Source: a virus
Strand: one strand, 5' to 3'
Virus record (IMG/VR): IMGVR_UViG_3300035698_017111
Coordinates: 1 to 64,000 of that record
Length of the DNA: 64,000 nucleotides
Each line of letters begins with the position of its first letter. Position 1 is the first letter of the stretch. The notes beneath the pieces are model-generated. The model did no database searches and had not been told where the DNA came from. It saw only the letters and a list, made by a program, of their open reading frames with translations. The translations under genes and the position numbers were made by a program. Below are positions 1 through 8,312 of this stretch, piece after piece.

Positions 1-321
1 TGAATGTGTTTTACTCACAATAGAGTGCATACGATCACGACATCTTTGAAGAGCGTCAATGACCTCATTGTAAAGCTCAATATCTGAATCTTCTTCAAGT
101 TCTACCGCAATACTTATATTCATTGCCTCAATTTCTTTTCGAAGAACGGAAATGTTGGCGAAATTCTGATTCTTAATTATCAACAATTTATCTTTAAACC
201 TATCCTTAAAAGCAGCAGAACTTGGCATATCCAAAAGTTCTGGAACAGTCATGTCTAAATAAAACTGATCTTTCTCTTTTGCAGTTGGTTTTACAGGTTT
301 TTTTTCATTTTCTTCTGTCAT
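1..321 (-). CDS. Hypothetical protein, runs off window start (MTEENEKKPVK...)
   Basis: ATG at 321 overlaps the TAA of the upstream ORF; frame open to position 1. Confidence 0.6.
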   Translation of the reverse strand, partial: MTEENEKKPVKPTAKEKDQFYLDMTVPELLDMPSSAAFKDRFKDKLLIIKNQNFANISVLRKEIEAMNISIAVELEEDSDIELYNEVIDALQRCRDRMHSIVSKTHS

Positions 322-707
322 TAGAATGCCACTTCTCCCTCGATACTATCTGGTATTGACATGTTACCCTCATGCTCTGCAACCATATCGTCAAACCCAT
401 CGATTTGAGATTCCAAATCTGGATTCGCTTCAATATCATCACCCAAGCCAAGAAGAGCTGAGTTCTTTTTGTCCTTAGCCAACTCCATTAAATTTCGAAT
501 ACCACGATCAATATCTTTTTCTGTCTCCAGTCGAACCTTTTCGCTAAGAACATTACATTTTTTATTAAACTCCTCCTCATCACCAACCTCAATTGGGAAC
601 GACATAAATGTTCCACATTCAATATTGTCATAACGAGAACTTACAGCTTTGAGATTAACCTTACGAGAATAACTCTTTGTAATCCTAATAGACTTTTTAT
701 GTCCCAT
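321..707 (-). CDS. Hypothetical protein with acidic C-terminus
   Basis: 128-aa ORF with GGAGG RBS, co-oriented with neighbours. Confidence 0.6.
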   Translation of the reverse strand: MGHKKSIRITKSYSRKVNLKAVSSRYDNIECGTFMSFPIEVGDEEEFNKKCNVLSEKVRLETEKDIDRGIRNLMELAKDKKNSALLGLGDDIEANPDLESQIDGFDDMVAEHEGNMSIPDSIEGEVAF

Positions 708-748: not shown

Positions 749-1393
749 TTAAAACAATGAAGTCTTCTCAACTAATTTACCAGCAAAGGACACGGGCACG
801 TTCGTAGATTTGGTCGCCATTTTCTTAATTTGATCTATTCTGCGTATCTCCTCAAGAATCTTCTTGTCTGTACCAAACTCACGAAACACAGAGTTTTCCA
901 AAAGAATTTTTGTCGTCTTAGAATCAACAATAGACTTATTGACATTTATTAGAAAATCAACGATAGAAGATGTGGATTGAATCTTCATTAAATGATCAGA
1001 AGCTCTTTGCCCAACACCCTTAAGGCTTACAAATGGAGCCAAAACTTCCATATCACCATTTGGACAATACCACGTTTTACTTCTATTTATTTCAGGTGGT
1101 AGAATCTTCAACTCTGGATATTCTTCTTGGAAGTGATCAATACACTCCTGAAGCTTTTCTTCATTCTTCTGTGCAGCAGAAGTCAGTATCGCACAAATAA
1201 ATTCAGTAGTATAATACGTCTTCAGATATGCCGTTTGATATGTAATGTAACCATATGCAGTCGAGTTTTTCGATATTACATTCCTTCCAGAACCGTCATA
1301 GATTAGATAATTGTGTTGCTTAGATTTCATAGACACATTATATACTGTTTCTTTTCCCATCTTTCTACAAGATACAATTTTTGATTTTTTCAT
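749..1393 (-). CDS. dnaE: DNA polymerase III alpha fragment 4: split-intein C half (43 aa) fused to the C-terminal DnaE extein (fingers end and HhH)
   Basis: MKKSKIVS..ETVYNVS..HNYLI..VISKN then S-TAYGYITYQTAYLKTYYTTEF, ILPPEINRS, SLKGVG; no OB-fold or tau-binding domain. Confidence 0.9.
   Translation of the reverse strand: MKKSKIVSCRKMGKETVYNVSMKSKQHNYLIYDGSGRNVISKNSTAYGYITYQTAYLKTYYTTEFICAILTSAAQKNEEKLQECIDHFQEEYPELKILPPEINRSKTWYCPNGDMEVLAPFVSLKGVGQRASDHLMKIQSTSSIVDFLINVNKSIVDSKTTKILLENSVFREFGTDKKILEEIRRIDQIKKMATKSTNVPVSFAGKLVEKTSLF
1265..1393 (-). mobile_element. Split intein 2, C half (IntC2)
   Basis: Basic 43-aa peptide with block F (VYNVS..HNY) ending K-N, followed by Ser+1. Confidence 0.85.
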
Positions 1394-2510
1394 ATTTTCT
1401 CTCCAAATAAAAATTACCTTTGTTGAAATATATCCACCTATAGAATCTAATCATCTCTGCTCTACCACCCATTAACCTCAAATCATATATACCTGAGTGA
1501 TTGTTTTTTCTAAAATACCTCTTAAAATTAAAACAAGTATTTTTGTCTTCTTCTATTGACTTTGAAAATAACGGAGAGGCAGTCGCAATAGAAACCCAAG
1601 GATAACCAGATTTCTTTATCAAACCTATAGAACCATCTCCATCTATTATTCCCCTATAATATGAACTTAAATATTTCTTAGGCATATTCCAATCATATTC
1701 AAGGGTAAACGTTTTTCTTTTTGTTATACCATATTTTTTTAAATCTTGAGATATTTCTGGGCAATGACATGTGAATCTAGCCATTTTACATTTTCCACCA
1801 TTTCCAATTACCTCAATAACACTACAGGACTCTCCAATTTCTTTAGCTATTCTTTCCAAAATATATCTATCGCAAACTTGTAATTGAATAGCAACTCCTT
1901 CGTAATTTTTTAAAACATACCCATCCGTGGCAAACAACCCTACCATATAAGCTTTTTTATGAGAGTTTATGGTATTAAAATAATCAACATTATAATAGGT
2001 ATATTTTTTACAAGGTCTAACATTAACGCCTCTCCTGTGAAGAACATCCAATACCGTTTTCCGTGTTAAAAAACCATATTTATGAGAAATAAATTCTGCA
2101 GTATTATTATTATTATTATAATCAACAATCATCTTCTCTTCTATATCTTTTGTTATTTTTTTGTTATATGGATTCCCCCTAACGGTTTTTATTTTGTTTT
2201 CTCTTTTGAACTTCAACAAAGAGCTTAATCTTACTTTCCGTCTTAAAGAAATGTCTTTCAAACTTACCCTGTGTTTATGTGCCCAATGGCACAAAAACCT
2301 ATAATATCTATCTCTTTTATTGGCAAAATTGAACTCATCCCTAATTCTCTGCAAAATCCTCAAAGTCAATAATTCACGGTCTTCATCTTTAATCTTTAAC
2401 AAAATACTAGAAAGAGAACAATGCCTAAAATAAAGGTTTCTTATATATGTGTAATCTAATTTACTTATTTCTTTCTTGTTCCATGGAACACACTTTTCTT
2501 TTTTATTCAT
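1365..2510 (-). CDS. Free-standing LAGLIDADG homing endonuclease between the halves of split intein 2
   Basis: Two motifs, AYMVGLFATDG and SYYRGIIDGDGSI, with an N-terminal basic/HTH-like extension. Confidence 0.85.
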   Translation of the reverse strand: MNKKEKCVPWNKKEISKLDYTYIRNLYFRHCSLSSILLKIKDEDRELLTLRILQRIRDEFNFANKRDRYYRFLCHWAHKHRVSLKDISLRRKVRLSSLLKFKRENKIKTVRGNPYNKKITKDIEEKMIVDYNNNNNTAEFISHKYGFLTRKTVLDVLHRRGVNVRPCKKYTYYNVDYFNTINSHKKAYMVGLFATDGYVLKNYEGVAIQLQVCDRYILERIAKEIGESCSVIEVIGNGGKCKMARFTCHCPEISQDLKKYGITKRKTFTLEYDWNMPKKYLSSYYRGIIDGDGSIGLIKKSGYPWVSIATASPLFSKSIEEDKNTCFNFKRYFRKNNHSGIYDLRLMGGRAEMIRFYRWIYFNKGNFYLERKYEKIKNCIL

Positions 2511-2541
2511 TTCACACCTCCGAATACAGATATATTACAAT

Positions 2542-4425
2542 CTATACTTCGGACATTATTTCAAAATCCCCTTCTATAATCTCAGAAACCTTTCTAAAGG
2601 TATTGTCAGAACACAAAAATCTATGCTCCATCGTACATTTAAATGACATGGCATTGTTTAATGTTATTTCAAAAACTTCCTGTTCCCCAGAATCTATCAA
2701 CTCCATAACCTCATCCTCCAAAGTCTCCCCATCCGAATAAGAATCTAGAATATCACCTGGTTTCAAATCTATTATTTCCATATATTCTTTAGTTTTTTTA
2801 TTAAAAACAAAAGTATCTCCAGACAAACAATGAGATTTGTTGAAAGCATATTCGCCAAACTCCACACAAATCTGCCACATGTCATTAATCAAATTAATCT
2901 GTAATTGGCTCTTGGCACAACCCTCACGAAACAATGGCTCTATCTCGTCAAGAAGAGATCTCTTCTTTTTAGCACAAGCTTTCCTTAGTTTATCTGCCTG
3001 AGCAAATGTAAAGCCAGCCAAAAGCATTGCCATGGAAATCAACTGTTCCTGATAAATCAACTGTCCATATGATTCCTTTAAAACTGGCTCCAATTTTGGA
3101 TGATCATATTCAATATCGTCTGGAAACTTTTTACCCTCTGCGTATTTATTATGCATATCACACGACAAAGGACCAGGTCTACCAAGAGCATTTGCTGCAA
3201 CAATATCATTAAAATCAGCACAACCAATAATTTCCATAACACCAGGATAATGTCGTGTCCTGACCTTGCCAGTTTTTTTACTAAGAAGAGGTTGTCCCGT
3301 CTTTCTATCCTTCATTGGGAAATCACTACCCCTAAAAGATCTACCAGATATTTGGAACAAACCTTCCAATTTATTATCGTCTATTGTTTTAAAGACCTTC
3401 TCATCGTCAGTCTCCAAATTATCAAGATCAAAATCTATCTCTTTACCAGCATCTCGAATAAGTTGTTCGGTAAGGGTCATTTGCCTAAGGTTATTCAACT
3501 GTAAGAAGTCGAACTTAAGAAGACCAATGTCCTCAATGTCATCCATGTCGAATTGTGTCGTAAGCCAATTGCCAGAAACAACCTCATCCTCAAACGACAA
3601 ACCAGCATCTGCTTTATTTTCATTCTGAACTTTAGCGATATGTAATCCAATGTCTTCTGTAATGCTTCTAGACGAAACAACAACACCGGCCGCATGTGTA
3701 CCAAACGACTTAATAAGACCTTCCAACTTACACGCCGCTTCAAAGACCTTTGGATTATCTTCCACCTCTTGCTCTAATCTATCAATTGCTTCGCCTATCC
3801 TCTTATTTGGAGGTTTAAAACTTTCATCTTCACCCATCCATTGCTTCATCTTCATTGTTGGATGGTTAGGCATAATCTTAGATATTCTCTTGGCTTCCTG
3901 GTCATTCTCTGTAGAAAATCTCTTATCACCAGGGACATTGCTTCGAGTAATATCCAATGCCTTTGCCGCAAATTGAACAGCTGCTTTTGGTTTAAAACAA
4001 ATATCTGTTCCAATTAGAGCAATCTTCTCTTCACCATACAGATCACACATGTGTTGTAGAATTGATTCTCTATGCTCAAAATCGATATCAATATCAGGTG
4101 GACTAATTCGAGATGCTTCTTTATTTAACTCAAAACGAAAAGAGAATCCTTTGGAAATATCTGGTTTCTTTTTCGTGATACACAACAAATATAGCAAAAG
4201 AGAATTTGGCTTGTTGTCTTCACCACCAATCTTTTTCTTCTGGAGAAATTCTAAAACACACTCCATAAGAGTTTCTCTTTCGGACATAAAGTCAAATTCT
4301 TCTTTTAATCTATCCTTTTCATCCTGACCAAACCCAAGTTTCTCTCCACGTCCATCAAGGAACTTCTTAATAAGAGAAAGTAGTTTTGTTTTTAATTCTA
4401 GTTTTTTACTTGACACTTCAACCAC
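2542..4425 (-). CDS. dnaE: DNA polymerase III alpha fragment 3: catalytic core fused to a split-intein N half
   Basis: SPPDIDIDF, GTHAAGVVV, GLLKFDFL, ALGRPGP, LIYQEQ, ADKLRKA, EYAFNKSH then CLSGDT...CTMEHRF intein blocks A/B; GTG start overlaps the upstream TGA. Confidence 0.92.
   Translation of the reverse strand: MVEVSSKKLELKTKLLSLIKKFLDGRGEKLGFGQDEKDRLKEEFDFMSERETLMECVLEFLQKKKIGGEDNKPNSLLLYLLCITKKKPDISKGFSFRFELNKEASRISPPDIDIDFEHRESILQHMCDLYGEEKIALIGTDICFKPKAAVQFAAKALDITRSNVPGDKRFSTENDQEAKRISKIMPNHPTMKMKQWMGEDESFKPPNKRIGEAIDRLEQEVEDNPKVFEAACKLEGLIKSFGTHAAGVVVSSRSITEDIGLHIAKVQNENKADAGLSFEDEVVSGNWLTTQFDMDDIEDIGLLKFDFLQLNNLRQMTLTEQLIRDAGKEIDFDLDNLETDDEKVFKTIDDNKLEGLFQISGRSFRGSDFPMKDRKTGQPLLSKKTGKVRTRHYPGVMEIIGCADFNDIVAANALGRPGPLSCDMHNKYAEGKKFPDDIEYDHPKLEPVLKESYGQLIYQEQLISMAMLLAGFTFAQADKLRKACAKKKRSLLDEIEPLFREGCAKSQLQINLINDMWQICVEFGEYAFNKSHCLSGDTFVFNKKTKEYMEIIDLKPGDILDSYSDGETLEDEVMELIDSGEQEVFEITLNNAMSFKCTMEHRFLCSDNTFRKVSEIIEGDFEIMSEV
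2545..2829 (-). mobile_element. Split intein 2, N half (IntN2, 95 aa)
   Basis: Starts CLSGDT, contains block B TxxH (CTMEH), acidic, ends at stop. Confidence 0.88.
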
Positions 4426-4675
4426 CTACCTTTGCTTTGAAAACATCGTCGTCATAAAGCTTATAATCTGCATCTGCAAAGAGAAAACGATCCATGCTCA
4501 GATCATATTTAATGGGATCTATGTTCGTAATCCCAAGACAATAACACACGAGGCTTCCAACGGCTGAATTGTGAACAGACAAACCTTCTATATTGTATGT
4601 GTGGGTGTTTTCTACGGAAAGATCATAAACCTTCCCTGTATATTTTGTTTTTTTTATTTTTTTTATTTTAGCCAT
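4418..4675 (-). CDS. dnaE: DNA polymerase III alpha fragment 2: split-intein C half (36 aa) plus a 49-aa DnaE extein
   Basis: MAKIKKIKK..KVYDLSVENTHTY..VHN then SAVGSLVCYCLGITNIDPIKYDLSMDRFL; ATG at 4675 preferred over 4690. Confidence 0.9.
   Translation of the reverse strand: MAKIKKIKKTKYTGKVYDLSVENTHTYNIEGLSVHNSAVGSLVCYCLGITNIDPIKYDLSMDRFLFADADYKLYDDDVFKAKVGG
4568..4675 (-). mobile_element. Split intein 1, C half (IntC1)
   Basis: Lys-rich 36-aa peptide, VYDLSV block F, terminal HN followed by Ser+1. Confidence 0.9.
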
Positions 4676-4676
4676 T

Positions 4677-5696
4677 TTAAATTCTTCCACCAGACCATTT
4701 CTTTAATTTATGATACCAATTTCTAAAACAAGAATTATCATTAAAAGATATATCATAATTATTAAAAATTTTCGTATACTTCTCTTTTAAAAAACTATCT
4801 CTCCTAACAAAAAGACCTAAATTGTGCAAATCTTTTTGATACAACAAATCATAACCCAATCCTGTTTTCTCTATTGTTGCTTGTTTTTTTGCTTCTGCAT
4901 TCAAGGAATTCCTCCCCTTCACCTCAACTATCTTCACAATATCGTCAATATTCGTCACAATAAAATCTGGGTAATGTCGCCTATTTCGACCACCGTTATC
5001 TCTATATGTGATTGGAGAACCGTCATATCTTCTTATTTGACGTATATTTTCACTTTCAAAACAATACACCACATAAAACAACTCCCAACTGCTATCAAAA
5101 AAAATTCCATTTACCTTGCCTGACAGAAAACTTTTACTTCTCCTTTTTTCGCAATAAAACGGATCATTATACATCAGTCTTATCTGTGCCAATCTTTGTT
5201 TTTCCAATGTTTCTTCCCTGTTTTGAGATATTAATTGAGATTCAGAATTATGTTTTCTCCATTCACTAGAATTGGTTGCGAACTTAAGTGAACATTTCCT
5301 ACAAATTGGCTTAGTTCCAACTATTTTTCTTCTCTTCATAGAATTAAATTGCATTTTTTCCAAATTACCACATTCAGAACATTTGAATTCAATTTCTCTT
5401 TTTGTACTCAAAATGTCTATAAACGGAATAATTCTTTCATATGGCCAAATTGTTTTATCCAGTAAATCCCAAAGAGGTTGTGGGTAGTTTTCTTTCTTCA
5501 TGTGAACTGGATTTGGTATCATTTTTTTATAACATTTTTGACAAATAGACTGTTCGTTATAGTGTTTTCTTTTTTTAAACATTCCTTTGTCTATTCTGAA
5601 AAAACAACCACATTCCTGACAAAAAAAATCCAAACGAATAGGCATAATGATCTCCTTTATTGTTGCATTATATCTATTCTTCAAACTGCCAAACAA
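4677..5696 (-). CDS. Free-standing PD-(D/E)XK (TnsA-N-like) endonuclease with N-terminal zinc fingers, between the halves of split intein 1
   Basis: Four CxxC motifs (CQEC, CQKC, CSEC, CRKC); FDSSWE...HYPDF...IVEVKG. Confidence 0.75.
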   Translation of the reverse strand: MFGSLKNRYNATIKEIIMPIRLDFFCQECGCFFRIDKGMFKKRKHYNEQSICQKCYKKMIPNPVHMKKENYPQPLWDLLDKTIWPYERIIPFIDILSTKREIEFKCSECGNLEKMQFNSMKRRKIVGTKPICRKCSLKFATNSSEWRKHNSESQLISQNREETLEKQRLAQIRLMYNDPFYCEKRRSKSFLSGKVNGIFFDSSWELFYVVYCFESENIRQIRRYDGSPITYRDNGGRNRRHYPDFIVTNIDDIVKIVEVKGRNSLNAEAKKQATIEKTGLGYDLLYQKDLHNLGLFVRRDSFLKEKYTKIFNNYDISFNDNSCFRNWYHKLKKWSGGRI

Positions 5697-5722
5697 TACC
5701 TCTTCCTATACCGATTGTTATT

Positions 5723-7114
5723 CTATCGTCCAATCAAATCAACAATATCATCATTTTCCTTAAGGTCTTTTGCATGAACCCAGACTTCTTGATCATCTCT
5801 GTTGATTAATATTAAATGATCTTCCGTACAGGTAATTTTCCTTCCATCCTCGACTTCTATTGTAATTACAGTTTCATCCACATCATACTCATATGTATCT
5901 ATAACTCCATTAACCGACCCATCATGAGAAACAACAATTTCTCCAACTTTTACTTCTTCAATGTTCTTTAAACATCCACTATCTAGTAAAACTTTATTTC
6001 CTGGAAGAAAACAACCACGACCAGCACCAATCCTGATGTTGTTATCTCTGGCCCACTTAACGTATTCCCACGTAATTAGAAAGTATCTAACAAATCCAGT
6101 AAATCCAATCGTCTCAAGTTCATCGTAGAATCTTGCACGATACACTGGCTTATCCCACAAATCCTTTTCCCTCATACCTTGTTCGGACAGAAACAAAAGA
6201 AGAGCATCTTCGTCAGTCTTGCCCCATAAATTCTTTTTATATTCAAGAAAATTACTATCAGAAGGAATGTCAAAGTTAGGAAGATCACCAGTACCTAAAA
6301 CCAAATCATAATCACACTTCTCTTCTACCTCCATCGTATTGTGTAAGAACTTTTCGTTCTCACCCTTAAAGATGGCACTCATCTTATCATATGGTTTTAG
6401 GTAATATTCAGATGAAGGCACCTGATCCTCTGGCAACGGTGAGTTTCGAGATATTGAAATCTTTAACGGATGAAATCTTGCATCATCCTTAGTTGAATAA
6501 TGAACATCATTTGTCGCAACTACCTTGATGCCAGATTTCTTTGAGAAACAAATAGTCTCTTTCGCAACTTCTATTTGTGGCTTGTATCCAGTATACATTG
6601 TTTCAAGATAATAATCATCTCCCCAAACATCTCTATACTTTCTTGCAAGATCAAAAGCCTGTTCGGGATTCCCATCTATAATATAACGAGAAAATTGACT
6701 CGACGTACAACCAGAACAAACAACCAAACCCTCATGGTGATCTTTAAGAACATCAAAAGTCAACCGTGGGAAACCATAAGTCATGTTCTTATGGGACTCT
6801 GTTGTCAGCCTCAGTATGTTTCTATAACCCTCTTCGTTTTTACAAAGAAGAGTGAGATGATATCTCTTAGATTTCTTGTCTGCAAAATCCTCCACAACAT
6901 ATGCTTCAAGACCGTAAATTGGCTTTAAACCAACCTCTTTACACTTCTTGTGAAACTTTACAAAACCACCTACTTTACCGTGGTCTGTTAATGCAACTGC
7001 TTTAAAATTCAACTCCTTGGCACGATTAACTAAATCAGAAATTTTCTGAAACCCGTCATATAACGAGTAGTCTGTGTGACAATGAAGATGAACAAATGGT
7101 ACGTGTTCACTCAT
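5723..7114 (-). CDS. dnaE: DNA polymerase III alpha fragment 1: PHP domain to the GRG motif, fused to a split-intein N half
   Basis: FVHLHCHTDYSLYDG, ALTDHG, KPIYGLEAY, ATNDVHY, IGAGRG then CFLPG..CTEDH. Confidence 0.93.
   Translation of the reverse strand: MSEHVPFVHLHCHTDYSLYDGFQKISDLVNRAKELNFKAVALTDHGKVGGFVKFHKKCKEVGLKPIYGLEAYVVEDFADKKSKRYHLTLLCKNEEGYRNILRLTTESHKNMTYGFPRLTFDVLKDHHEGLVVCSGCTSSQFSRYIIDGNPEQAFDLARKYRDVWGDDYYLETMYTGYKPQIEVAKETICFSKKSGIKVVATNDVHYSTKDDARFHPLKISISRNSPLPEDQVPSSEYYLKPYDKMSAIFKGENEKFLHNTMEVEEKCDYDLVLGTGDLPNFDIPSDSNFLEYKKNLWGKTDEDALLLFLSEQGMREKDLWDKPVYRARFYDELETIGFTGFVRYFLITWEYVKWARDNNIRIGAGRGCFLPGNKVLLDSGCLKNIEEVKVGEIVVSHDGSVNGVIDTYEYDVDETVITIEVEDGRKITCTEDHLILINRDDQEVWVHAKDLKENDDIVDLIGR
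5726..6013 (-). mobile_element. Split intein 1, N half (IntN1, 96 aa)
   Basis: Starts CFLPGNKV, block B ITCTEDH, acidic, ends at stop. Confidence 0.9.
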
Positions 7115-7791
7115 TTTGCCCTCCTCTTCATTGGCTTGGGTCTTCTCTTTTGATGAAGTACCCTATCGATAATACCAAACGCTCTTGATTCTTTTACCGA
7201 CATCCATTTGTCTAGTTCCTCCGAAAGGAAAACCTCTTCTATTTCTTTCAAAGTCCTTCCGGTGTTTCTGGAGAATATTCCGTTGAACTTTTTAGCCAAC
7301 CGATCATACTCCCTTTTATAGTAAAGAATGTGTGATGGCTTTACCTCATCAACACTTCCAGAAATTTCATGATACATGAATTCTGCATTCTTACCACCAT
7401 ATCTTTTACCAGGAGCTCCATTAGACGCAATGAGACATGCTGCACTTGCTGCCCTGCCAAGAACAATTGTTCTTATGTCACATGAGCAAGAATCCATTGC
7501 GTCGATTAACGCAAGACAATCAGGAACATATCCACCATCACTGTTGATTACAAGATGAATATCCTCTCCTGGTTCACGATCCTCAAGAATATGTATCTGG
7601 CACACCACATTCAAAATACTCTCAGTACTCACATCACCAAACAAATAAATCTTTCTCTGCTCAAGTCTCTCCATAAAATCAAACATACCCATCATACTAA
7701 GGATATGATCTGGAGCTCCCTTGTTTTCGTTTTCGTTTTCTTCTTCCTCTCCATATCCCCTGATTAATCGTTCGATGATATTCTTACTCAT
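7111..7791 (-). CDS. clpP: ClpP-family serine protease subunit
   Basis: RKIYLFG, INSDGG, GRAASAA (Ser), FMYHE (His), DKWMS (Asp), AFGIID. Confidence 0.9.
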   Translation of the reverse strand: MSKNIIERLIRGYGEEEENENENKGAPDHILSMMGMFDFMERLEQRKIYLFGDVSTESILNVVCQIHILEDREPGEDIHLVINSDGGYVPDCLALIDAMDSCSCDIRTIVLGRAASAACLIASNGAPGKRYGGKNAEFMYHEISGSVDEVKPSHILYYKREYDRLAKKFNGIFSRNTGRTLKEIEEVFLSEELDKWMSVKESRAFGIIDRVLHQKRRPKPMKRRAK

Positions 7792-7799
7792 ATTCTCTC

Positions 7800-8312
7800 C
7801 TAGTATAGGAAATGGTGGTTGTCTATTTCCTTCTTAGTCATACCCTTTTCTTCTATAATTTTTTTTCTCATGAAGATGGGAAGCTCTATACTATGCATCA
7901 TACATACGACATCAGAGAAGTATATGTTGGTGCAAAAGAACTTGTTATCAAGTTCAGTAACCAGATAGGTAAAAAACGTTCCACCCTCTTCCTTGTCAAC
8001 AAAAGACAATATTATATTAACGCCATAAAAACTAGATAACACCGAAAACAAACCTTGGCTCGTTGGAATTGTCTTCGTATGGCCATCCATATAAACCTTA
8101 ACGTTAAGGAAGGATCTGGTGGAGAGTGGCACGTCAACAAAATACTCTGGATCCAAACATTCTACCAATGCCCCAAACCTAGTGCATGGTGTTCTTGGGT
8201 CATAACAATAAGCTCTAACACGTTTAACTCTAGTGAATTCACTAAAGAAATCATGAGATTTGGTATAGAAATTTAACAAACCACCAATTTTTTCAATTGC
8301 TATAGTGTTCAT
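7800..8312 (-). CDS. Divergent bifunctional-nuclease (DUF151/BFN)-like protein
   Basis: IPTSQGLF..GGTFFTYL..FSDVVCM..LPIFMRKKIIEE resembles the RPxTHDL..GTFYA.L..PSDAIAL..PIYV pattern. Confidence 0.5.
   Translation of the reverse strand: MNTIAIEKIGGLLNFYTKSHDFFSEFTRVKRVRAYCYDPRTPCTRFGALVECLDPEYFVDVPLSTRSFLNVKVYMDGHTKTIPTSQGLFSVLSSFYGVNIILSFVDKEEGGTFFTYLVTELDNKFFCTNIYFSDVVCMMHSIELPIFMRKKIIEEKGMTKKEIDNHHFLY

Follow-up and report, generated by a model that had tools for sequence, protein, structure and literature searches.

A two-piece DNA polymerase III alpha in a lineage of large phages: a conserved gene break, a duplicated palm segment and a probable shared active site

Organization of the dnaE locus

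The locus lies in a stretch of 64,000 nucleotides (the window; positions 1 to 64,000 of IMG/VR record IMGVR_UViG_3300035698_017111). The uncultured phage record as a whole is 146,772 bp (~147 kb) and is 77% complete by CheckV. Its dnaE ORFs and the endonuclease genes interleaved with them are all on the minus strand (Table 1). Replicative Pol III alpha is the textbook case of a single-chain catalytic subunit, and to our knowledge the only natural splits of cellular Pol III alpha are those rejoined by inteins. Here the gene is broken at three places, and one of them, at 4418-4425, is not of that kind.

The other two breaks each separate the halves of a split intein. Both inteins are expected from their sequence to trans-splice in this dnaE, so that four ORFs would give two mature chains, predicted at 416 aa (the PHP chain, chain 1) and 703 aa (the core chain, chain 2). 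The domains are recognized by Pfam in ORF A (PF02811, E 2.3e-45; PF07733, profile 20-65), in ORF D (PF17657, the fingers, E 3.9e-36) and in the 749-1393 ORF (the HhH domain PF14579, E 4.8e-09), and neither chain has a Pfam match to an OB-fold or tau-binding C-terminus. The endonuclease between the halves of intein 1 matches PF08722 under the curated cut-off (E 3.2e-05); it is part of a fractured-gene arrangement (as in Dassa et al., 2009) and is unconnected to the third break. Searches of the 146,772-bp record turned up no family A or B polymerase (PF00136 included) and no PF07733 match beyond these. The two-piece DnaE is then the only recognisable DNA polymerase of the phage record, which could hold another in its missing part because it is incomplete.

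Table 1. Coordinates of the dnaE features in the window
Feature	Coordinates	Strand	Description
PHP-chain N-extein	6014..7114	-	ORF A residues 1-367; PHP exonuclease domain and palm N-subdomain up to GAGRG
Split-intein N-half 1	5726..6013	-	Cys first, directly after GRG; Pfam Intein_splicing and Hint, ORF A residues 366-458
Free-standing endonuclease gene	4677..5696	-	Between halves of intein 1; TnsA-like PD-(D/E)XK N-domain
Split-intein C-half 1	4568..4690	-	ORF C residues 1-41, HN at end; Pfam Intein_splicing profile 118-155 at residues 4-41
PHP-chain C-extein, 49 aa	4421..4567	-	Copy 1, canonical; Ser of GRG/S, GS helix, DRFL (4481-4492), family-specific 20-aa tail
Intein-less break	4418..4425	-	TGA 4418-4420 (PHP chain) overlaps GTG 4423-4425 (core chain); read from sequence
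Core-chain N-domain	4111..4425	-	ORF D residues 1-105; copy 2, degenerate palm N-subdomain duplicate; NKPNS at 4201-4215
RISPPDIDIDF	4078..4110	-	ORF D residues 106-116; canonical strand; catalytic aspartates D111, D113, D115; family-invariant
Core-chain first extein	2830..4425	-	ORF D residues 1-532; N-domain, Mg-binding palm part, thumb, fingers, to FNKSH
Split-intein N-half 2	2545..2829	-	Pfam Intein_splicing at ORF D residues 565-621
Free-standing LAGLIDADG endonuclease gene	1365..2510	-	Between halves of intein 2; Pfam PF14528
Split-intein C-half 2 and last core-chain extein	752..1393	-	C-half 1265-1393; extein with HhH domain 752-1264

A conserved break and a duplicated palm segment

The sequence-only reading of this DNA had proposed that the PHP chain stops soon after DRFL, that the next ORF opens at a GTG overlapping the stop codon, and that this third break involves no intein. 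All three statements hold. ORF C (4418-4690) ends 20 residues past DRFL, and ORF D (2542-4425) begins with the GTG at 4425-4423, giving a stop/start overlap of 8 nt (GTGGTTGA). In L011, a distant relative, the equivalent junction reads ATGGTTGA, which supports the GTG as the start of ORF D. The break has no flanking intein halves and no intervening endonuclease gene, its flanks are DnaE-like, and Pfam detects neither a Hint domain nor an intein in the tail of the C-extein or in residues 1-110 of ORF D. The stretch 4418-4425 shows no promoter, no terminator and no RNA structure of significance, and the RNA fold downstream of the junction is no better than that of shuffled sequence (z 0.87). In terms of the Taq enzyme the break falls between residues ~455 and 457, past the GS helix and the FERFL helix and ahead of the DxD strand. 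The GRGS..FERFLNPER..PDxDxD stretch, contiguous in canonical single-chain DnaE, is interrupted here by the stop and start codons and by a ~105-aa segment, referred to as copy 2.

Copy 2 occupies ORF D residues 1-105. It lacks GRGS, as had been noticed, and carries NKPNS at the place of the canonical GRGS..GS. RISPPDIDIDF comes next and pairs with the Taq strand RVSMPDIDTDF in a phmmer alignment. The start of ORF D had also been said to echo the end of the PHP chain, and this is borne out in several ways. Positions of the PF07733 profile are covered twice, 65-96 by the C-extein in ORF C and 69-259 by ORF D. A family profile of ORF D residues 1-110 aligns with that of the PHP chain by hhalign (30-88 on 319-386; probability 89.5%, E 2e-6, 24% identity), and tblastn alignments to intact phage DnaE start at ORF D residue 30-38.

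The AF2 model of the core chain (pLDDT 79) fits the DnaE structures of Taq, E. coli and M. tuberculosis no earlier than residue ~99-100, the counterpart of chain residues 392-412 (Z 15-21); in the VIA alignment with Taq 3e0d_A (Z 20.7), model residues 99..538 lie on chain residues 396..824. The N-domain is not placed at the canonical palm position in the VIA alignment of the whole core chain, in which most rows begin at ~99-100. A model of one chain by itself may position such a domain arbitrarily, and the N-domain was therefore folded and searched alone. The model of ORF D residues 1-110 (AF2, pLDDT 81) was compared with 48,161 PDB representative chains, and the top seven are all C-family polymerases (Z 5.5-8.7), followed by an unrelated chain at Z 4.8. 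Examples are 9qpc_A (Z 8.7), 5lew_A (Z 8.5, rmsd 4.3 over 100 residues) and 5fku_A (Z 7.4, rmsd 3.6 over 99). The matches align from E. coli residue ~283 or M. tuberculosis residue ~312. The echo is therefore real, but it is not confined to the three short motifs first seen: copy 2 spans the whole palm N-subdomain, approximately E. coli 283-395.

Nine residues of this N-domain are invariant across 21 sequences. Its mean pairwise identity is 0.37, against 0.55-0.59 elsewhere in the core chain, and a stretch with the pattern F.F.F, modelled by AF2 without a helix, stands in for the FERFL helix. Copy 2 is a diverged but conserved duplicate of the palm segment that ends the PHP chain.

The break is not peculiar to this locus. 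About 30 intein-free relatives keep two genes, cut at the identical residue. PHP-less core chains form ~21 clusters (620-715 aa, 45-65% identity) with the N-domain common to them, and PHP chains form ~28 clusters (415-479 aa) terminating at the identical residue, an ending in which A..Y and FF are invariant. The FADADY of the tail was considered as a relic of PDIDIDF and the idea was dropped, only the Ala and Tyr being invariant while the Asp positions vary among relatives. The PHP and core genes adjoin in L001, L003, L004, L005, L011 and L012, and the junctions found in relatives are at +2 nt, +17 nt, -8 nt and -1 nt, or have two intervening genes. Altogether the same break recurs in dozens of assemblies that are independent of one another, with identity as low as ~33%. 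This gene boundary is genuine and conserved, and it is neither an error nor a frameshift nor a concealed intein.

Nor is the split universal. About 14 relatives are natural single-chain fusions holding both copies. One of these, P0245, is an intact table-11 ORF of 1143 aa with equal synteny; further fused forms are P0246, P0247, P0243, P0244, P0385-P0388, P0005, P0013 and P0019 and, more distantly, P0028 and P0030. The phmmer alignment of P0245 to Taq breaks at one place (332-402 on 387-457; 533-796 on 457-672), which makes copy 2 a ~130-aa insert between FERFLNPE and RVSMPD. The natural fusions indicate that the PHP and core parts function together, which lends indirect support to a heterodimer. 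The fused forms make up a single clade (SH-aLRT 100). Its apparent placement within the split forms depends on a short branch, supported at 82 in a quickly built tree. The nearest relative of the present phage, P0001 (SH-aLRT 99), is likewise split. The tree requires at least two changes between the fused and split states. A blastn search of positions 2000-8000 against GenBank phages gave no match, and tblastn of either chain against phage records found only unsplit DnaE at no more than 38% identity and no cultured relative of the family. The split is a lineage-wide trait of related large phages.

A probable shared active site

How are the functional motifs divided between the two chains? Copy 1, in the PHP chain, has RGS, G.L, DP and MDRFL invariant. 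The core chain has no GS, and its invariant residues are G68, N71, N74, S75, T84, R106, S108, P110 and D111/D113/D115. The elements of a Pol-beta-type palm are thus present across the two chains, GRG/S in ORF A and ORF C and the three aspartates plus a third acidic residue, D293, in ORF D, and with them the DnaE-type features, namely a PHP domain with its metal site, fingers and an HhH domain. In the family alignment H46, E71, H87, C137, D204 and H206 of the PHP metal site are invariant and H12, H14 and D21 nearly so. Over 94% of its length the PHP chain shares 38-41% identity with cellular DnaE, and its tblastn matches to cultured-phage DnaE end at DRFL. Inteins usually sit at functionally constrained sites, and intein 1 sits at the GRG/S of copy 1 in this phage and in P0019, P0243 and P0244.

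The pairing of the chains was modelled on an intein-free pair from L001 (4751-5998 and 6001-8079) with custom alignments. The complex has ipSAE values of 0.86, 0.86 and 0.85, against 0.00 for the best of three controls; the ipSAE mark is reached by 58 of 80 solved complexes and by two of 110 mismatched pairs. Contacts agree between runs by at least 94%, with partner pLDDT of at least 89. The large modelled interface comprises residues 338-412 of chain 1 (the GRGS loop and tail) and residues 43-127 and the finger motifs 456-475 and 526-539 of chain 2, and so includes both copies. This score may be a memory of solved single-chain DnaE because the chains are halves of one fold. Which copy adjoins the aspartates is judged from contact lists and alignments, and these would place copy 1 there.

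It had been proposed from the letters that four ORFs yield a two-polypeptide enzyme with a shared active site, in which the duplicated helices might form a pseudo-symmetric or domain-swapped interface. The gene boundary, the two predicted chains and the modelled pairing all speak for the first part. For the second, we infer a shared site because copy 1 keeps RGS and MDRFL without variation whereas copy 2 has lost GS, because copy 2 aligns as an insert, and because the superposition on known DnaE starts at residue ~100. It is fairly likely that the C-family polymerase of this phage consists of two polypeptides docking into one enzyme, with GS on chain 1 and the aspartates on chain 2. Such an enzyme would probably be a heterodimer. 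In outline, the PHP and core genes would be co-transcribed and translationally coupled through the overlap. ORF A and ORF C would trans-splice to give chain 1, with the PHP exonuclease domain and its complete metal site, the NTP-binding palm half (helix, strand, GRGS, helix, DRFL helix) and the short conserved tail. ORF D and the 749-1393 ORF would give chain 2, which would open with the ~105-aa degenerate palm-half copy and its invariant G..N..NS loop in place of GS and continue with the Mg-binding strand PDIDIDF, the third acidic residue, thumb, fingers and HhH domain. Docking over a large interface would then rebuild the single-chain DnaE architecture, with chain 1 contributing the triphosphate-binding GS motif and chain 2 the catalytic aspartates. 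Copy 2 would be an extra domain touching chain 1, most likely a docking or bracing module. It looks like a remnant either of an internal tandem duplication or of a fission in which the gene was duplicated and each copy then lost a complementary part. There is perhaps an even chance that a stronger version is right, in which the active site is assembled across the two chains, the degenerate duplicate is an obligatory docking domain, there were at least two switches between split and fused states, and the fission arose by duplication and complementary degeneration.

What if the core chain is self-sufficient? In this scenario it would use its own copy 2, with N for S, and the PHP chain would be a separable proofreading subunit, a counterpart of epsilon, whose palm-like end is a docking handle. 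The intact PHP metal site fits. Copy 2 could indeed be the core chain's own NTP-binding half, because it resembles the canonical palm N-subdomain in fold (Z 7.2-8.7 against DnaE and PolC chains), is modelled confidently alone and has invariant polar residues, the G..N..NS, at GS-region positions. However, a docking handle is not expected to hold R-G-S and MDRFL invariant or to retain its level of identity to cellular DnaE. Moreover, copy 2 is the faster-evolving segment, is off the canonical position in the core-alone model and has F.F.F without a helix where FERFL should be. GS is also a near-universal hallmark of the Pol-beta-type nucleotidyltransferase fold, which counts against a core that lacks it. 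A self-sufficient core is unlikely.

Other scenarios would join the chains or do away with the break. A programmed +1 frameshift at GGT-TGA-A (4423-4417) would fuse ORF C to ORF D into a single chain, joining the frames at the stop after the Shine-Dalgarno-like AGGTAGGTGG much as in prfB, and the product would match the fused forms of relatives. Yet that purine-rich stretch is equally good as a ribosome-binding site for ORF D, Gly-tRNA re-pairing on GTT would be expected to be poor, and the downstream RNA fold offers no stimulator. The junctions of relatives differ in frame and distance, with up to two whole genes between, so no single recoding rule fits them all. This candidate was rejected because the relatives have no conserved shift site or stimulatory element in common, and it is very improbable. 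A ligation of the chains by a cryptic split intein was also considered. Atypical split inteins have halves on the scale of roughly ~20 aa and ~105 aa, near the sizes of the tail, as a short N-half, and the ORF D N-domain, as a long C-half. However, the tail has no starting Cys or Ser, the N-domain has no final HN and nucleophile, and neither end has a Hint or intein match in Pfam. Both profile and fold mark the N-domain as a homologue of the DnaE palm, the R.SPPD that follows it pairs with the canonical R.SMPD by phmmer, and fused relatives retain both the tail and N-domain segments in the mature protein. The Pfam results and motifs rule this candidate out for practical purposes. The record being a metagenome-derived virus sequence leaves room for the suggestion that assembly or sequencing introduced the break by mistake, or that a once-fused gene was recently inactivated by mutation. 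Both ORFs are full length with conserved termini, though, and the identical break residue in so many independent assemblies, together with the split in the nearest relative, makes this scarcely credible.

If the two-chain reading is correct, this lineage keeps its Pol III alpha either as two proteins, divided only a few residues ahead of the catalytic aspartates, or fused with a 130-aa internal duplicate. It would be a natural test of how far a Pol-beta-type active site tolerates division, a worked example of fission with retained overlap and later re-fusion, and a natural record of fission by duplication and complementary degeneration within an essential active site. Enzymology would gain a ready two-piece DnaE scaffold, with proofreading and dNTP binding on one chain and catalysis and DNA binding on the other. 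For annotation, a ~690-aa PHP-less "DnaE" and a ~415-aa "partial DnaE" in metagenomic phage records would be partners and not fragments or pseudogenes.

Comparison with known systems

A search of the literature for PHP-bearing phage DnaE split by means other than an intein yielded only the precedents cited here. The other two breaks of the present dnaE are exactly of the kind described for fractured genes, in which split inteins are combined with a free-standing endonuclease, three DnaE loci included (Dassa et al., 2009, PMC2677866). In contrast, the break at 4418-4425 has neither intein halves nor an endonuclease.

Splits without inteins are known in T4-related phages. The family B polymerase gp43 of Aeromonas phages 25 and 44RR is described as encoded by two cistrons, 43A and 43B, with no intein; the two products purify together and have activity (Petrov et al., 2010, as cited in PMC2988022). 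As far as that account goes, the likeness is of a replicative polymerase in two cistrons with no intein. The differences are the polymerase family and the origin, given there as an inserted untranslated sequence or a seg endonuclease, with no duplicated overlap reported in it. Another essential enzyme split near its active site is NrdA-a/NrdA-b of Aeromonas phage Aeh1, in which new C- and N-terminal tails are needed for functional assembly (Crona et al., 2011, PMC3045599). This is the role proposed here for the PHP-chain tail and the core N-domain. However, that enzyme is a ribonucleotide reductase and its tails originated in the mobE insertion and not in a duplicated host gene.

In group 2.2 jumbo phages a minimal Pol III alpha has a predicted division into two proteins, of which the N-terminal one binds NTP and the C-terminal one binds Mg and DNA (Iyer, Anantharaman, Krishnan, Burroughs and Aravind, 2021, Viruses 13:63, PMC7824862). 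Set side by side by description, the cut is at the same subdomain boundary as here. However, that version is a minimal module with no PHP or other domains, its genes are distant from each other, and it accompanies a family B polymerase. The present enzyme comes close to a full-size DnaE, with PHP, palm, thumb, fingers and HhH, and is encoded by adjacent, overlapping genes. Its record (77% complete) gave no match to a family A or B polymerase, and the second chain keeps a duplicate of the palm half of the first.

Canonical DnaE (Taq 2hpi/3e0d, E. coli 2hnh/5fku and M. tuberculosis 5lew) has the same domains and motifs as the two chains together, which cover Taq residues 5-457 and 457-957. The difference is copy 2, the insert that this family carries between FERFLNPE and R.S.PD and at which most of its members are cut. 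Split polymerases are therefore already known, and what is added here is a full-size, PHP-bearing DnaE divided between adjacent genes with a retained duplicate of its palm half.

Layout of the dnaE locus

All genes of the dnaE locus lie on the minus strand. Two of its breaks are intein breaks of the known "fractured gene" type, of which DnaE cases have been described (Dassa, 2009). Splicing would be predicted to yield a PHP chain of 416 aa (exteins of ORFs A and C) and a core chain of 703 aa (exteins of ORF D and the 749-1393 ORF). From the Ser of GRGS at its start, the ORF C extein continues through the GS helix to DRFL and on for another 20 residues, here called the tail. The first intein sits between GRG and S (window 6011-6016 and 4565-4567), and the Ser of the GS motif therefore itself serves as the +1 nucleophile. 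In the single-chain relatives P0019, P0243 and P0244 an intein fills this site too.

Features of the dnaE locus and its neighbours
Feature	Coordinates	Strand	Content
ORF A	5723-7114	-	PHP domain and start of the DnaE palm up to GAGRG, then intein N-half
ORF B	4677-5696	-	TnsA-like endonuclease gene
ORF C	4418-4690	-	intein C-half, then 49-aa extein
ORF D	2542-4425	-	GTG start overlapping TGA by 8 nt; second intein N-half after FNKSH
LAGLIDADG endonuclease gene	1365-2510	-	downstream of ORF D
Last dnaE ORF	749-1393	-	intein C-half and HhH-bearing C-terminus
ClpP gene	7111-7791		directly before the PHP-chain gene, with an ATGA overlap
Small downstream ORF	321-707		no Pfam match
Small downstream ORF	1-321		no Pfam match

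The pairing of ClpP and dnaE is kept in split and fused relatives alike (loci L001, L003, L004 and L006), and dnaE in relatives is likewise followed by genes of similar size to the small downstream ORFs (96 to 131 aa). Core chains stop shortly past the HhH domain with a conserved terminal ..L-F; Pfam detects no OB-fold or tau-binding C-terminal region after it in the 749-1393 ORF or in relatives.

A duplicate of the NTP-binding half of the palm

The sequence-only reading had noted that the start of ORF D echoes a region of ORF C. The echo is real by Pfam, hhalign, tblastn and fold comparison. Positions 65-96 of the Pfam DNA_pol3_alpha profile are matched by ORF C and positions 69-259 again by ORF D. 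Alignment of ORF D residues 1-110 with the PHP chain was run profile against profile, and the ORF D profile (built from 21 family members) aligned with the PHP-chain family at 319-386 (probability 89.5%, E 2e-6; 24% identity over 59 columns). Alignments of ORF D to intact phage DnaE by tblastn start at residue 30-38. A model of residues 1-110 by themselves (pLDDT 81) has three helices, then a loop and another, short helix. Compared exhaustively with 48,161 PDB representatives, it finds only C-family polymerases among its seven top-ranking chains, and these align with it from where the palm begins. Matches include 9qpc_A (Z 8.7), 5lew_A (Z 8.5), 5fku_A (Z 7.4; from E. coli residue 283, with an rmsd of 3.6 across 99 residues) and 2hpi_A (Z 5.5), before the first unrelated chain at Z 4.8. 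The segment resembles DnaE in both profile and modelled fold. Because the fold, Pfam, profile and tblastn evidence combine, this degenerate duplicate (copy 2, the first ~105 aa of ORF D) spans the whole NTP-binding half of the palm, the canonical version of which (copy 1) ends the PHP chain.

Copy 2 is conserved, with nine invariant residues that include G68, N71, N74 and S75. It is also faster-evolving, with a mean identity of 0.37 versus 0.55-0.59 for the rest of the core chain, and its FERFL helix is replaced by an F.F.F-patterned stretch that is modelled without a helix.

Single-chain members of this DnaE family that hold both copies (fused forms) emerged from a search of 1.8 billion cluster representatives and another limited to longer proteins. 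P0245 is an uninterrupted table-11 ORF of 1143 aa with the same synteny, carrying GRGS at 368, DRFL at 396, NKPNS at 499 and PDIDIDF at 538. By phmmer, its residues 332-402 align with Taq 387-457 and 533-796 with 457-672, so that the tail, a linker and copy 2 make up 130 aa inserted precisely between FERFLNPE and RVSMPD. P0019 corresponds to ORFs C and D joined: a single chain runs from an intein C-half through extein, tail and linker to the core. The more distant fused P0028 and P0030 have the same insert, and P0026 (NPDRISPPD) is an unduplicated relative. A quick maximum-likelihood tree of the sequence that follows the DxD strand groups the 12 near fused forms into a single clade (SH-aLRT 100) and makes the P0028/P0030 pair sister to the split P0029 (SH-aLRT 100). 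This tree requires that the family switched between the fused and split states two or more times, in either direction.

The third break as a gene boundary

The third break, at 4418-4425, is a real gene boundary that relatives keep at the same place. Protein searches found ~21 clusters of PHP-less core chains opening with the same N-domain (45-65% identity) and ~28 clusters of PHP chains of 415-479 aa ending at the same place. Relatives that lack inteins carry the two genes as neighbours within a conserved replication module; ClpP lies immediately upstream, RecA and Toprim genes follow downstream, and L001 and L003/L004 add a PD-(D/E)XK gene. The IMG/VR virus record of 146,772 bp that contains the window has neither a further PF07733 match nor a polymerase of family A or B.

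Could the break be an error, a pseudogene, a recoding site or a site of cryptic splicing? The gap between the genes measures 2 nt in L001 and 17 nt in L003 and L004, and in L005 it holds two other genes; the genes overlap by 8 nt in L011 and by 1 nt in L012, both with core chains only ~33% identical to the window's. Such varied junctions fit no single frameshift rule, and shuffled sequences fold as well as the RNA that follows the junction (z 0.87). As the sequence-only reading held, no intein signature flanks the break, which also speaks against cryptic splicing. All four causes are therefore unlikely. The 8-nt stop/start overlap, RTGGTTGA, is common to the window and L011 (6001-6008), and closer relatives differ at the junction.

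Other modules occur at this place. P0248 has a Macro domain fused to the core-chain N-terminus, and in L005 (1711-2441) a Macro-domain gene and an 82-aa gene lie between the two chain genes, making the break a recurrent landing place for a Macro module (ADP-ribose-binding or -hydrolase type). In the PHP-chain alignment (A3, columns 490-520), P0124, P0126, P0128, P0132 and P0135 have, past the conserved tail, a short Cys-rich end (CxC..CxxC type), a possible zinc knuckle that the window's PHP chain lacks.

A probable two-chain enzyme and its precedents

Each chain has its own share of the canonical residues. The PHP chain, at 38-41% identity to cellular DnaE, has a complete PHP metal site and invariant R-G-S, GS helix, DP and MDRFL. 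The core chain lacks GS, and its R.SPPDIDIDF and other palm and finger motifs are invariant. In a model of the core chain alone, only the part beyond residue ~99-100 can be superposed on solved DnaE (beginning at Taq 396 and E. coli 392; Z 15-21).

A two-chain model was made with the intein-free PHP and core chains of L001. It scored high (ipSAE 0.86, 0.86 and 0.85 versus 0.00 for the best of 3 controls), a mark that 58 of 80 solved complexes attain, as do 2 of 110 mismatched pairs, although these counts hold only roughly here because the alignments were our own. Contact agreement between runs was at least 94% and partner pLDDT at least 89. The modelled interface includes the GRGS loop and tail (338-412) of the PHP chain and the N-domain, DxD strand and finger motifs of the core chain. 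The two chains are the parts of a single-chain fold with many solved structures, and the score may reflect what the predictor has learned from these; it speaks for likeness to DnaE, not for binding.

The break with its duplicated segment is confirmed, and comparative evidence supports the two-chain reading well. From the motif division, the traits of copy 2, the core-alone superposition and the complex model taken together, we infer an active site shared across two chains. The enzyme would be a heterodimer in which the proofreading (PHP) chain supplies the GS motif and the core chain the aspartates, with copy 2 as an additional domain for docking or bracing. In the main alternative, the core chain would be self-sufficient and use copy 2, leaving the PHP chain as an epsilon-like accessory. 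We consider this less probable than the heterodimer.

In the literature searched there is no account of a near full-size DnaE with a PHP domain that is split other than by an intein, nor of the duplicated overlap or fused/split polymorphism, and GenBank phages include no close relative. Precedents for split enzymes are known. T4-related phages 25 and 44RR encode a family B polymerase in two cistrons, and its parts are active and co-purify. In phage Aeh1, NrdA is split and has new tails, which are essential. For group 2.2 jumbo phages, Iyer et al. (2021) predicted the split of a minimal Pol III alpha into NTP-binding and Mg/DNA-binding proteins, but that version lacks the PHP domain, is encoded by distant genes and occurs alongside a family B polymerase.
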